In this document: in pieces, positions 45,306-51,312 of the stretch
How the letters are laid out: every line of letters starts with the position of its first letter
Position numbering within the stretch: the first letter of the stretch is position 1
From: Escherichia coli
GTDB taxonomy: Bacteria > Pseudomonadota > Gammaproteobacteria > Enterobacterales > Enterobacteriaceae
Length of the DNA stretch: 64,000 bases
Assembly: GCF_041248615.1 (NCBI RefSeq)
Contig: NZ_CP158426.1
Direction: 5' to 3' (one strand)
Program-made: the position numbers and the translations under genes
The notes under the pieces: generated by a model
What the model was told of the DNA's origin: nothing
The model's database searches: none
What the model saw: only the letters and a program-made list of their open reading frames with translations

Positions 45306-45863
45306 TAATACTATTCCTGCCCTGTAATTTACGGGCAGGGTATATCAACCGGAAATAGCCTACTGACATCCATGTATAAAGCCACATAATTATTTTGTTG
45401 ATGTATCTTACCTAATACGTAAGCGTAAAGCCAATGCCGTCTGTAACTCCTGATCCTTGCAGACTAAATGTAAGCGCTCCTTCTGTGCCGTCTTGTGGTG
45501 GTTGTCCTGTCTGGCAACAATCGTGTCCATCTATTGATGGACACGAATGATGAATTCTCAGACAACAAAAGATATCACCGGCTTTCGCTCTTATTTTCCA
45601 GATGTATTGCGACTAATATTCGAAGAGCAATTATCTGTTCGGGCTATCGCACTGGAGCAGTTAGGCCTCAGTCATTCCACCGTTCATAATATCTTTCAAC
45701 GGTTTAATGCCTCTGGCATGTAAGCGTAAACCGACCGTTGTATTGACGCTTATTTATAGGGGAGAACTACGTTCCATGGCAGGAGTTCGTCAGTAAGCGT
45801 ACAGCCTGAACCGTCTGGTCAGAATCTGACGCATTAGACAAAGTGGTGTCCACAAAATAAGTA

Positions 45864-46265
45864 GTGGGAACCAAAGTGTCAGATATGCAGAAAAATGTGA
45901 CTCCCGGCAGGCGAAAAGGCTGCCCTAATTATCCTCCCGAATTTAAACAGCTGCTCGTTGCTGCCTCCTGTGAACCCGGGATATCCATCTCAAAACTTGC
46001 TCTTGAAAATGGCATTAACGCCAATCTGTTGTTCAAATGGCGACAACAATGGCGCGAGGGAAAGCTGCTATTACCTTCTTCAGAGAGCCCCCAGCTACTT
46101 CCTGTGACTCTCGATGCAGCTGCCGAACAGCCAGAATCGCTCGCAGAGGACCCGGAAACCCTCAGTATCAGCTGTGAGGTAACGTTCCGGCACGGGACGC
46201 TCCGCTTCAATGGCAATGTCAGCGAAAAGCTCCTGACTCTGCTGATACAGGAACTGAAACGATGA
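45864..46265 (+). CDS. IS66-family OrfA (TnpA)
   Basis: 133-aa ORF, paralogous to orfA of the complete element. Confidence 0.7.
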   Translation: MGTKVSDMQKNVTPGRRKGCPNYPPEFKQLLVAASCEPGISISKLALENGINANLLFKWRQQWREGKLLLPSSESPQLLPVTLDAAAEQPESLAEDPETLSISCEVTFRHGTLRFNGNVSEKLLTLLIQELKR

Positions 46266-46609
46266 TCCCGTTACCTTCCGGGACCAAAATTTGGCTGGTT
46301 GCCGGTATCACCGATATGAGAAATGGCTTCAACGGCCTGGCTGCGAAAGTACAGACGGCGCTGAAAGACGATCCCATATCCGGCCATGTTTTCATTTTCC
46401 GGGGCCGCAGCGGCAGTCAGGTTAAACTGCTGTGGTCCACCGGTGACGGGCTGTGCCTCCTGACCAAGCGGCTGGAGCGTGGGCGCTTCGCCTGGCCGTC
46501 AGCCCGTGATGGCAAAGTGTTCCTTACGCAGGCGCAGCTGGCGATGCTGCTGGAAGGTATCGACTGGCGACAGCCTAAGCGGCTGCTGACCTCCCTGACC
46601 ATGCTGTAA
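46262..46609 (+). CDS. IS66-family OrfB (TnpB)
   Basis: 115-aa ORF, paralogous to 48328-48678; overlaps orfA by 4 bp. Confidence 0.75.
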   Translation: MIPLPSGTKIWLVAGITDMRNGFNGLAAKVQTALKDDPISGHVFIFRGRSGSQVKLLWSTGDGLCLLTKRLERGRFAWPSARDGKVFLTQAQLAMLLEGIDWRQPKRLLTSLTML

Positions 46610-46704
46610 ATCTCTTTATCCTGGTTGTCACAGAATAAGCCCGGTAAAATACGGGCTTATGAACGACATCTCTTGTAAGCGTCAACGGAGCACCGTATTG
46701 ACGC

Positions 46705-48678: not shown

Positions 48679-49100
48679 CTTCCCCTCCCGGTCAGTTCAC
48701 GGATCAACACCGTGAGCAGCTCTGGCGATGGATTTTCCAGCGTCATGTTACCGTGACGGAATTCCACCTTGCAGGAACTGGCACTGACTCTGGTCTGAGT
48801 GGAAGTGGATAAAGACGGCGCAATGGCCGCCACAGGTTCTTTCTGCTCATCCGGCGTTATTTCTACAGGTAATAATTCAACGCCAGTGTCAGAAGAGGTC
48901 GTTACCGGAAGACGCCGCGAAACACGCCCTTCGTTCTGCCAGAGCCTGAGCCATTTGAAAATAACATTATCATTGACGCCATTTTCACGTGCAATCTGTG
49001 CAACACAAGCTCCAGGTTGTGATGCCAGTTCCACCATACGAAGTTTGAATTCATTCGAATAGTTTTTACGAGGTTCTTTTCGCCAGTCCTGTAATTCCAT
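48675..49100 (-). CDS. IS66-family OrfA (TnpA)
   Basis: 141 aa, typical IS66 OrfA; overlaps orfB by 4 bp. Confidence 0.8.
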   Translation of the reverse strand: MELQDWRKEPRKNYSNEFKLRMVELASQPGACVAQIARENGVNDNVIFKWLRLWQNEGRVSRRLPVTTSSDTGVELLPVEITPDEQKEPVAAIAPSLSTSTQTRVSASSCKVEFRHGNMTLENPSPELLTVLIRELTGRGR

Positions 49101-49269
49101 ACTTAGATGTCCGTCTATATCAGATGGGCGTCTAAGTTACCAATTCTCGTCTGATGGCTACATACGGCGGTCAGTTTACGCTTACCTTTATCCCGACAGA
49201 CGACGTATATTTACCAGTAAGGCCAACCCGGTTGCGCCCTTTGAACCAGAAGTCAAACGTCAGGCTGTC

Positions 49270-50421
49270 ATGGCACTCTGTACACGACAAGTATCAGCCA
49301 GTGAAATCGCCAGGCGTATTGGTGTCAGTCGTGCGGTATTGTATAAATGGAAAGATAAAATTATCGGCAACAGTGCTTACCAGACTATGCGTAAACATAA
49401 CGAACCTTCCCTGGAGGCAGAACGCGATGCGTTGCGGGAGGAAGTCGCCCGACTGAATCAGGAAATACGCCGCCGGCAGATGGAGCTGGATATTCTGAAA
49501 AAGGCGGAGGAAATCATAAAAAAAGACCCGGGCATCAGTATCAGTCACCTGAACAACAGAGAGAAAACGAAGATCGCTGATGCCCTGAGACAAACATATC
49601 CCCTGACAGAATTACTGCATGTTCTGGGCCTTGCCCGTAGCAGTTATTTTTATCACCGGGCTGCACTGAAAGCCGGTGATAAATACGCCACGATACGTAC
49701 GATGCTGACAGATATATTTAACAGTAATTACCAGTGTTATGGCTATCGTCGCCTGCATGCGATGCTCAGGCATGAGGGGGGGCGGCTATCAGAAAAGGTT
49801 GTACGCAGACTTATGGTGGAAGAACAGCTTGTCGTCAGCCGTAACCGTCGTCGCCGCTACAGCTCATATTGCGGAGAAATCGGACCGGCTCCGGATAACC
49901 TTATCGCCAGAGATTTTAAGGCGGAGCAACCTAATCAGAAATGGCTGACAGATATCACGGAGTTCCACCTCCCTGCAGGTAAAGTCTGGCTATCATCGGT
50001 GGTGGACTGCTTCGATGGAAAAGTTGTGAGCTGGTCTCTCAGTACACGCCCCGATGCTGAACTGGTCAACACTATGCTGGATAGCGCTGTCGAAACGTTA
50101 AATGCTGGCGAACGACCGGTGATACACAGTGACAGAGGTGGGCATTATCGCTGGTCAGGCTGGCTGGAAAGAGTGAATGCAGAAGGTCTTATTCGCTCAA
50201 TGTCCCGCAAAGGATGTTCACCTGATAATGCGGCATGCGAAGGCTTTTTCGGCAGACTGAAAACGGAAATGTATCATGGGCGTAAATGGTCGGGCATCAC
50301 GCCAGAAAAGTTCATGCAGCAAGTGGATACTTACATCAGATGGTATAACGAGCGGCGTATAAAATTATCGCCGGGTGCAGTCAGCCCCAAAATGTACCGC
50401 CAACAATGCGGGCTGGAATGA
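49270..50421 (+). CDS. IS3-family transposase (fused OrfAB-type; 5' end abutted by the IS66-family element)
   Basis: HTH N-terminus, DDE core and C-terminal SPDNAACEGFFGRLKTE motif; the frame is open upstream into the IS66 terminal repeat, implying 5' truncation. Confidence 0.7.
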   Translation: MALCTRQVSASEIARRIGVSRAVLYKWKDKIIGNSAYQTMRKHNEPSLEAERDALREEVARLNQEIRRRQMELDILKKAEEIIKKDPGISISHLNNREKTKIADALRQTYPLTELLHVLGLARSSYFYHRAALKAGDKYATIRTMLTDIFNSNYQCYGYRRLHAMLRHEGGRLSEKVVRRLMVEEQLVVSRNRRRRYSSYCGEIGPAPDNLIARDFKAEQPNQKWLTDITEFHLPAGKVWLSSVVDCFDGKVVSWSLSTRPDAELVNTMLDSAVETLNAGERPVIHSDRGGHYRWSGWLERVNAEGLIRSMSRKGCSPDNAACEGFFGRLKTEMYHGRKWSGITPEKFMQQVDTYIRWYNERRIKLSPGAVSPKMYRQQCGLE

Positions 50422-51312
50422 TAAAGCAGTCCAGGAAATCGTCCGCATCCCCAGAACGGTCAAACATCGTGGCGTTGACAACGGGTTCCTGAGTCCGGTG
50501 AAGCGCCGGTTACTGGAAAATGTTGTGTACGTCATAACAGAAACGGAGAGAAAAACGGCGATGCAAATCAGGCGGAGAAGGGTGTATCAGCGGTTACTGA
50601 AGGTTGACCCGCTGAAGTGCATCCTGTGCGGAGGTCAGATGCGGTTTACGGGGCTGAAGCGGGGCTACCGTCTGGCAGAGCTGGTCATGATGCATGAGCC
50701 ACTGGCACGACAGCGGGTATACAGCTGAGAGCCGCAGAGGGGAAGTTGCGTCCATTTTTTGAGGAATGGAGCAAAAAATCATCACAGATATAAAAAATCA
50801 ATCAATGAAAGCCATTTAATTGCCGGTGCATTGTGGATGCAGTCCTCATGGTACGTAACCAGAGTTGAATAAACATCCATTTTTTTGTGTTTTTTTAACC
50901 TCCCCGGGTTTTTAATTCCTGTCGATTAAAAGTGTTAGATTATTTGGTTAAGAGTTCTCTCGTCCTATTTATTCAGGCGTTATCACGGATATGCAGATCG
51001 CTAAGTCAGTTGTAAGAAAACCAGACAGTGCACATCATTATACCTAGGTCTTCTCTGGAAAAATACTTAGGAATAATTTATGTAAAACAGGTTGTCGTCT
51101 TCATGATTTAAACGCAGTACATATATATACTCTATAATAAATACAGGGAGTATCACGAGACGTCTGGATAAGAGGAATAACCAGAATAAATTGGTAAGGA
51201 ATAAAGACACTTATTTCTATTGAGAAAAAACATTCATCCTGATGTGATTAGTATCAATGAAATAATGTGCTTGTATGGTTGATAAAAAATGCATCACTAA
51301 AGAAAAAACAGT

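Follow-up and report, generated by a model that had tools for sequence, protein, structure and literature searches.

The segment between coordinates 45306 and 50730 of the 64,000-nucleotide stretch of Escherichia coli contig NZ_CP158426.1 analysed here (hereafter the window) contains a dense cluster of insertion sequences (ISs) within a selC genomic island of the type found in extraintestinal pathogenic E. coli (ExPEC) and avian pathogenic E. coli (APEC). It is made up of five IS66-family pieces, designated A0, A1, B, C and D, followed by a 5'-truncated IS3-family element (E) and a remnant of an IS91-family element (F); the coordinates are collected in Table 1. Together the five IS66-family pieces form a composite that is also found inserted as one block in two plasmids, in each case with an 8-bp duplication of the target. 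All of the parts belong to known IS families; what is new is that the nest transposes as a unit, and we found no description of this 3,767-bp unit in the searchable literature.

Table 1. Insertion sequence pieces and adjoining features of the cluster, with coordinates in the window.
Feature	Coordinates	Length	Strand	Description
Native intergenic DNA	45306-45418			3' of the DUF4198 gene, not IS-derived; its last bases, CCTAATAC, are the left flank of the unit
Composite IS66-family unit (A0+A1+B+C+D)	45419-49185	3,767 bp		Four fragments and one intact element
A0	45419-45469	51 nt	+	ISEc43-family left inverted-repeat end; left terminus of the mobile unit
A1	45470-45719	250 nt	+	Left end and first 58 codons of a long tnpA (open reading frame (ORF) 45547-45719) of an unnamed ~2.7-kb IS66-family element
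B	45720-45792	73 nt	-	Last 73 nt, tnpC side, of an ISEc23/ISEc43-group element, reversed
C	45793-46674	882 nt	+	nt 1-882 of ISEc8: left terminus, tnpA 45885-46265, tnpB 46262-46609 and first 16 nt of tnpC
D	46675-49185	2,511 nt	-	Complete element, probable ISEc23 isoform: tnpC 46705-48297, tnpB 48328-48678, tnpA 48675-49100; the unit terminates on the right at the tnpA-side end of D
E	49186-50453		+	IS3-family element; first 339 bp missing (left inverted repeat and 99 codons), open frame 49186-50421 kept
Junction	50454-50477	24 bp		Between the IS3 right end and the IS91 similarity; outside both the IS3 and the IS91 alignments
F	50478-50898		+	IS91-family remnant: last ~82 transposase codons (50483-50728, including CILCGGQMRF) and ~170 bp of non-coding tail

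The imperfect terminal inverted repeats of IS66-family elements characteristically start with GTAAGCG. This heptamer occurs ten times in the window, compared with 5.6 ± 2.2 times in shuffled sequences, and six of the ten occurrences are within 3.8 kb, five of them on the plus strand (at 45419, 45470, 45720, 45793 and 46675) and one as the complement ending at 49185. Each of the six is followed by extended similarity to an IS66-family end, and they are thus real termini rather than chance occurrences; an IS66 member with a GTAAGCG-initiated inverted repeat is shown in PMC12888890. Every fragment ends precisely at the terminal GTAAGCG of the next piece. There are two complete tnpA/tnpB sets, one in C and one on the opposite strand in D, together with a third, truncated tnpA in A1 and a single tnpC in D. 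An earlier note on this DNA, made from the sequence alone, had read the GTAAGCG-type repeats and two orfA/orfB sets as successive insertions of IS66-family elements into one another, and the exact fragment ends bear this out. Its termini at 45720, 46675 and 49185 were right, those at 45417 and 45788 were off by two and five bases (the correct positions being 45419 and 45793), and that at 45470 was missed. It also recognized correctly that there is one complete IS66-family element, but the number of IS66-family pieces is five and not four, as the 51-bp ISEc43-type end is separate from the 250-bp fragment that follows it.

The pieces were defined by comparison with complete copies from plasmids and genomes. 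A0 is 96% identical to a copy labelled ISEc43 by the Prokaryotic Genome Annotation Pipeline (PGAP; locus L016, 2,541 bp, with the duplication GCAAGTTC) and identical at 51/51 nt to the copy at locus L015. A1 shares 90% identity with nt 1-247 of an element of 2,710 bp present on plasmids p104 (L014) and 55989p, and its ORF matches positions 1-45 of the NCBIfam model IS66_access_TnpA. We considered 45419-45719 as a single fragment and rejected it; the similarity to ISEc43 copies stops after 51 nt, and the L014 relative starts only at 45470, the inner GTAAGCG. B is 88% identical both to window 46675-46747 and to the end of ISEc23, and 86% identical to the end of ISEc43. C is 99.3% identical to a complete 2,442-bp copy whose TnpC has the PGAP label ISEc8 family, with near-identity from the left terminus onward, and its two proteins match Pfam HTH_Tnp_1 and TnpB_IS66. 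A pattern scan of 45200-45900 found no terminator-like site. The region has continued to receive insertions in other genomes: ISCro1 (2,699 bp, with the duplication GAAAAATG) is inserted in the ISEc8 fragment after 45897 in a sublineage that includes TUM9754, and others have IS100 or IS3 insertions.

The intact element D is 97.5% identical in nucleotide sequence to a 2,532-bp ISEc23 in E. coli of sequence type 131 (ST131; flanked by the duplication GATACTTT), this being a copy with the PGAP label 'ISEc23 family' and not the ISfinder reference sequence. The TnpC of D has 96.6% aa identity to that of ISEc23, 89.9% to that of ISEc43 and 62.6% to that of ISEc8, and when proteins are clustered at 90% it groups with those labelled ISEc23. 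By the ISfinder naming convention an isoform has a transposase at least 95% identical in aa sequence, and DNA at least 90% identical, to the reference. D differs from the compared ISEc23 in being 21 bp shorter, in having a TnpC of 530 rather than 537 aa, and in carrying only the PGAP label 'IS66 family'. It resembles other members of the family (ISEc23, ISEc8, ISEc43 and ISCro1) in its tnpA-tnpB-tnpC genes, DDE_Tnp_IS66 domain, GTAAGCG termini and 2.5-kb size, and in the 8-bp duplication made by its stand-alone copies. A0, A1, B and C are unlike full IS66 elements in that they are end fragments that do not move alone. The D proteins match Pfam HTH_Tnp_1, TnpB_IS66 and all four TnpC domains (DDE_Tnp_IS66, with an E-value of 7e-97, zf-IS66, LZ_Tnp_IS66 and DDE_Tnp_IS66_C), and the NCBIfam models IS66 TnpA, TnpB and transpos_IS66 all exceed their cut-offs. 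The ends of D begin GTAAGCGTCAACGGAGCACCGTAT at 46675 and, as the reverse complement, GTAAGCGTAAACTGACCGCCGTAT at 49185, and are 78% alike over 27 nt.

The earlier note had pointed out that the complete element lacks an 8-bp duplication, and its flanks in the window indeed differ (CATCTCTT on the left and CTTTATCC on the right). However, stand-alone copies of D with identical ends are present in three plasmids within perfect 8-bp duplications (ACAAGATC, CAAACATC and GACTGTCG), and D-type DNA at 99% identity or more is found in 107 plasmids. We conclude that D is an active element with these boundaries; a single canonical element with other boundaries, which the earlier note had named as the outcome that would overturn its interpretation, does not apply, as the stand-alone element has exactly the ends given here. 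At an unrelated locus, the sat-iha island of the ST131 strain E41-1 (L012, 3669-8003), the ISEc23 copy flanked by GATACTTT is located outside an ISEc8 left-end fragment of 168 bp, at a distance of 30 bp. A full copy of the 1.6-kb IS3-family element represented by E interrupts that fragment, so that the three IS types are associated there also.

The block 45419-49185 inserts elsewhere as a single unit with an 8-bp target duplication. It is intact in two F-type plasmids at unrelated sites: in pMS1679-1 (NZ_CP097720.1) it interrupts traR, with TGTTTATC duplicated on both sides, and in p14EC020b (NZ_CP024140.1) it is downstream of repA, with CTTAATTA duplicated on both sides. When the empty sites were reconstructed by joining the flanks with one copy of the 8-mer (500-bp queries), both matched many other plasmids at 100% identity without gaps, and these are therefore simple insertions with the 8-bp duplication of the IS66 family. 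The region of the A0/A1/B/C junctions is present in 125 of 5,426 complete E. coli genomes, at 125 chromosomal and two plasmid places, and both of the unit-bearing plasmids reside in strains that also have a chromosomal copy; in 14EC020 the plasmid and chromosomal units have 0/3,767 differences. Fragment C is matched at 99.9% only by the two composite-bearing plasmids. Each of the 127 junction records either has its start at 45419 or is interrupted by an IS that inserted later, and no sub-units pairing the inner termini 45470, 45720 or 45793 with 49185 were found in other contexts. In metagenomes the A0/A1 junction was seen on five contigs, each of them with the island flank, and the composite was not found outside E. 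coli in species-representative genomes. The 1,256 bp that the unit holds beyond D consist of IS66-family fragments only, with no passenger genes unrelated to transposition.

The flanks of the unit in the window come from two different places. Window 42386-45418 is collinear with strain Nissle (96.5% identity) up to exactly 45418, and the Nissle site is unbroken (...CCTAATAC|ATTGATAGC) and runs on into a CobW-family gene, so the left flank of the unit is a Nissle-type site ahead of CobW. The right flank, beginning CTTTATCC, is nt 340 of the IS3-family element. As the earlier note had noticed, the IS3 gene abuts the complete element and is 5'-truncated; it starts at 49186 and is 339 bp short of full copies. 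APEC plasmids carry the full IS3 together with the module downstream of it (the IS3, the IS91 remnant and a 3,498-bp autotransporter gene) at 99.94-99.98% identity over 5,297 bp (window 49186-54482), and there the breakpoint reads ...GAA CTTTATCC CGACAG.... Neither the CobW side of the left site nor the 5' part of the IS3 is present anywhere in the window. The absence of a duplication around the window copy is accounted for if the left flank is the original insertion site and the right flank came to lie inside the IS3 after a deletion or recombination. Comparison of the flanks points to a deletion at the right end of the unit, or to recombination between a pair of copies, either of the unit or of D, as the event that joined the two modules; this event would have removed the CobW-family gene and the IS3 5' end. 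Whichever the joining event, the unit lies exactly at the seam where two modules that differ in ancestry meet.

The joining could alternatively have involved a plasmid carrying the IS3/IS91-remnant/autotransporter module, which would have united with the chromosome through the unit or a copy of the ISEc23 isoform, either as a cointegrate or by homologous recombination between two copies, and not through simple adjacent deletion; the nest would then be the point at which the module entered the island. To this route we would give a real but minority chance. The near-identity of window 49186-54482 to the APEC plasmid module is as expected from it, as are the relationship of the left module to a different island in Nissle, the position of the unit exactly at the seam, and an IS1 on the far side of the autotransporter gene. 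On the other hand, neither plasmids nor genomes yielded a case of an IS66-type end inserted at CTTTATCC of the IS3, noting that the junction of the D tnpC-side end in the IS3 (the IS3 5' part, CTTTATCC and GTAAGCGTCAACGG) was sought in species-representative genomes only, with a pattern stopping at the shared GTAAGCG, and an adjacent deletion yields the same final structure.

To the left of the seam, genes coding for a TonB-dependent receptor and a DUF4198 protein (42525-45305) form a module, and in Nissle a gene for a CobW-family GTPase comes next. In the lineage of the window the CobW gene has probably been lost at the boundary of the IS unit, with truncation of what is probably a three-gene metal-uptake module. 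Downstream of the CobW-family gene in Nissle (locus L004, 10623-10842) there is a 220-bp IS66-family tnpC-side end fragment, 88% identical to window 46675-46893, and the equivalent module in another island has thus also been hit by an ISEc23/43-type element. To the right of the seam, the autotransporter gene (51313-54810) codes for 1,165 aa, with 99.9% identity to one on APEC IncF/IncI plasmids, where it is preceded by the same IS3 and IS91 remnant; we presume it to be aatA, the APEC autotransporter adhesin gene.

The truncated element E is assigned to the IS3 family by the NCBIfam model transpos_IS3 (383.7 bits, cut-off 160) and by Pfam matches to rve, rve_2 and HTH_21. Full copies at loci L006 and L012 are ~1.6 kb long, with a single 510-aa ORF and a 26-nt inverted repeat (TGGGGATGCGGACG...), seen on comparing the left end of the L006 copy with window 50428-50453. 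IS3-family elements have TG...CA inverted repeats and a 3-4-bp duplication and typically, although not universally, an orfA and orfB joined by a programmed -1 frameshift. The full copies have a single ORF and no orfA/orfB frameshift, so the family assignment rests on the transposase model; no target duplication was recognisable at the three loci examined. No source gave a name more specific than 'IS3 family transposase' for this element.

The order in which the nest was built is a reconstruction from the precise junctions between the pieces, and not an observed excision history. The unnamed ~2.7-kb IS66-family element would have entered an ISEc43-type element 51 nt from its left end, and would itself then have been entered at about nt 250 by an ISEc23/43-type element in reversed orientation. 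An ISEc8 would have inserted into the latter, 73 nt from its end, and finally the ISEc23 isoform, which is still complete, into the ISEc8 at nt 882. For mobilisation, we propose that the TnpC of D bypasses the tnpC-side end of D (46675) and couples the tnpA-side end (49185) to the ISEc43-type end at 45419. Cutting or copying out would then take D together with just the left-hand portions of the nest, the right halves staying behind at the birthplace of the nest, and this end pairing accounts for why A0, A1, B and C accompany D as left halves only. Over 27 nt, the ISEc43-type end matches the tnpA-side end of D at 78% identity, the same value as for the two ends of D itself; a surrogate pairing is plausible because the two pairs of ends are equally similar. 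ISEc43 and D also share the tnpC-side end, and their TnpC proteins are 90% identical.

It is most likely, judging from these end similarities, that the enclosed D transposase acts on the two outer ends. A real unit that owes its mobility to a different IS66-family transposase acting in trans, such as that of a resident ISEc43, with the ISEc23 isoform not the driver, seems to us unlikely: the left terminus is an ISEc43-type end, and elements of the ISEc43 family and ISEc23 are common in E. coli, but the right terminus is the end of the ISEc23 isoform and the unit itself supplies a complete tnpA-tnpB-tnpC set in cis. That the block is instead a static IS graveyard, in which successive insertions and later rearrangements left one active element among immobile and inert debris, is very hard to sustain, since the island context of 125 of the 127 copies and the absence of a duplication around the window copy are set against two whole-block plasmid insertions with perfect 8-bp duplications and demonstrable empty sites, one of them identical to the chromosomal copy of the same strain.

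We consider it highly probable overall that an IS66 nest in the selC island gave rise to a mobile chimeric unit, and that this became a seam by deletion or recombination. Several points weigh against this reading. The junction expected at the birthplace of the nest (the end of D, CATCTCTT, and the rest of ISEc8, CTGACGAC) is absent from the complete E. coli genomes and from the metagenome collection, and neither the 5,426 E. coli genomes nor the species-representative genomes contain a unit that has the DUF4198/CobW site, or else the IS3 site, at each of its ends. Mobility is rare, with only two transposed copies among 72,556 plasmids and 5,426 genomes. The transposase driving the movement may have come from a copy of ISEc43 or ISEc23 acting in trans, and the element names used here are the PGAP labels of the compared copies, not ISfinder references.

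The unit invites comparison with the tIS66 elements described in PMC12888890, which carry passenger genes and have ends related to two different IS66 members. It resembles these (for example ISPa75-fosZ), and compound transposons with surrogate ends, in combining an IS66 transposase module with extra DNA, in having ends that derive from different members, and in moving as a unit. It differs from tIS66 in three ways: the cargo is IS66-family debris only, with no passenger gene of another function; on each side it is bounded by a tnpA-side (left-type) end, the two coming from different elements; and it has been built by nesting and not by capturing host DNA next to it. Nature here provides a clean example of how nested relatives give a chimeric unit, in which the end of a sister element apparently serves an IS66 transposase as a surrogate terminus. 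Transporter ISs and compound transposons arise by the same logic. The unit also joins a chromosomal metal-uptake-type module, with its CobW-family gene lost, to a plasmid-type autotransporter module, and its position at the exact seam makes IS-mediated joining a likely route of island assembly. For annotation, the region is resolved into named pieces with exact ends, and the formerly unassigned ORF is explained (see below). The understanding of IS66 elements is not changed in a major way; apart from one feature of modest novelty, the biology is that of ordinary ISs.

The locus has sustained five insertions of IS66-family elements into IS66-family DNA, four in the window and that of ISCro1 in the sublineage, and these could reflect either a neutral landing pad or a real target preference. 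It raises the possibility, which we regard as rather improbable, that IS66-family elements preferentially insert into or next to IS66-family DNA, with nests routinely spawning chimeric mobile units through pairing of ends between members; in ST131, too, ISEc23 lies 30 bp from an ISEc8 end. Were such self-targeting true, new variants of ISs and transporter ISs could arise by this route, nests would offer a seam at which island modules are joined, and the accessory proteins TnpB or TnpA, whose role is unexplained, could contribute to the targeting.

The ORF at 50375-50728, which had been left unassigned, is the C-terminal end of an IS91-family transposase. Its residues 38-117 are 85-90% identical to the C-termini of IS91 transposases, and nucleotide identity to the 3' end of IS91-family elements is 80-90% across 50478-50898; PGAP likewise annotates 50483-50728 as an IS91 family transposase missing its N-terminus. 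The first ~36 codons of the ORF come from reading through the right end of the IS3 and the 24-bp junction. The ORF has no match to Pfam (including Y2_Tnp) or NCBIfam models, and some of the IS91 transposases that it matches carry PF04986 upstream of the matched part. Full IS91-family members are rolling-circle (HUH/Y2) elements, and the piece in the window, which has only the C-terminal ~82 codons and the tail, is an inert remnant and not a functional member. The limits of 45306-50730 first given for the cluster do not hold at either side, as 45306-45418 is native flanking DNA and IS-derived DNA reaches to ~50898, some 170 bp beyond 50730.

The segment 45306-50730 (5,425 bp) is 100% identical to E. 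coli NRZ14408 (NZ_LT599825.1), and is found at 80% coverage or more in 108 of the 5,426 complete E. coli genomes, many of which are from poultry or human extraintestinal isolates. By RefSeq annotation the island lies between setC/yicL and the tRNA-Sec gene (selC), with an adjoining tyrosine integrase, and the same IS junctions are carried by the APEC strains BEN2908 and IMT5155. The selC island of BEN2908 is, we assume, AGI-3, and the likeness of the window to AGI-3-type selC islands of ExPEC and APEC lies in the selC position, the adjoining integrase, and the IS junctions in common with BEN2908 and IMT5155. IS1A (54832-55529), the tyrosine integrase gene (56003-57187) and tRNA-Sec (57487-57581) mark the selC end of the island, with yicJ and yicI next. 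At the other end of the window (1-2331), beside yicS and nlpA, there are genes for a YopB/SseC-family type III translocon protein and a SycD/LcrH-type chaperone, which we take to be similar to the selC-adjacent eip translocator locus of some E. coli.

Further features are present in the window. At 8316-9151 there is a CbtA-family toxin and YeeU-family antitoxin pair, with DUF987, antirestriction and JAB-domain genes nearby, the usual accessory block of CP4-type islands. The region 25471-30726 encodes a split transketolase, ascorbate-type IIA, IIB and IIC components of a phosphotransferase system, and a LacI-family regulator, and it resembles the tkt1 carbohydrate island of APEC O1 (PMC3349570). 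Finally, two copies of ISEc31 (IS3 family, with the identical protein WP_085949589.1) are located ~30 kb apart in opposite orientation inside the island (10516-11729 and 41018-42231), and recombination between them could invert the intervening DNA.

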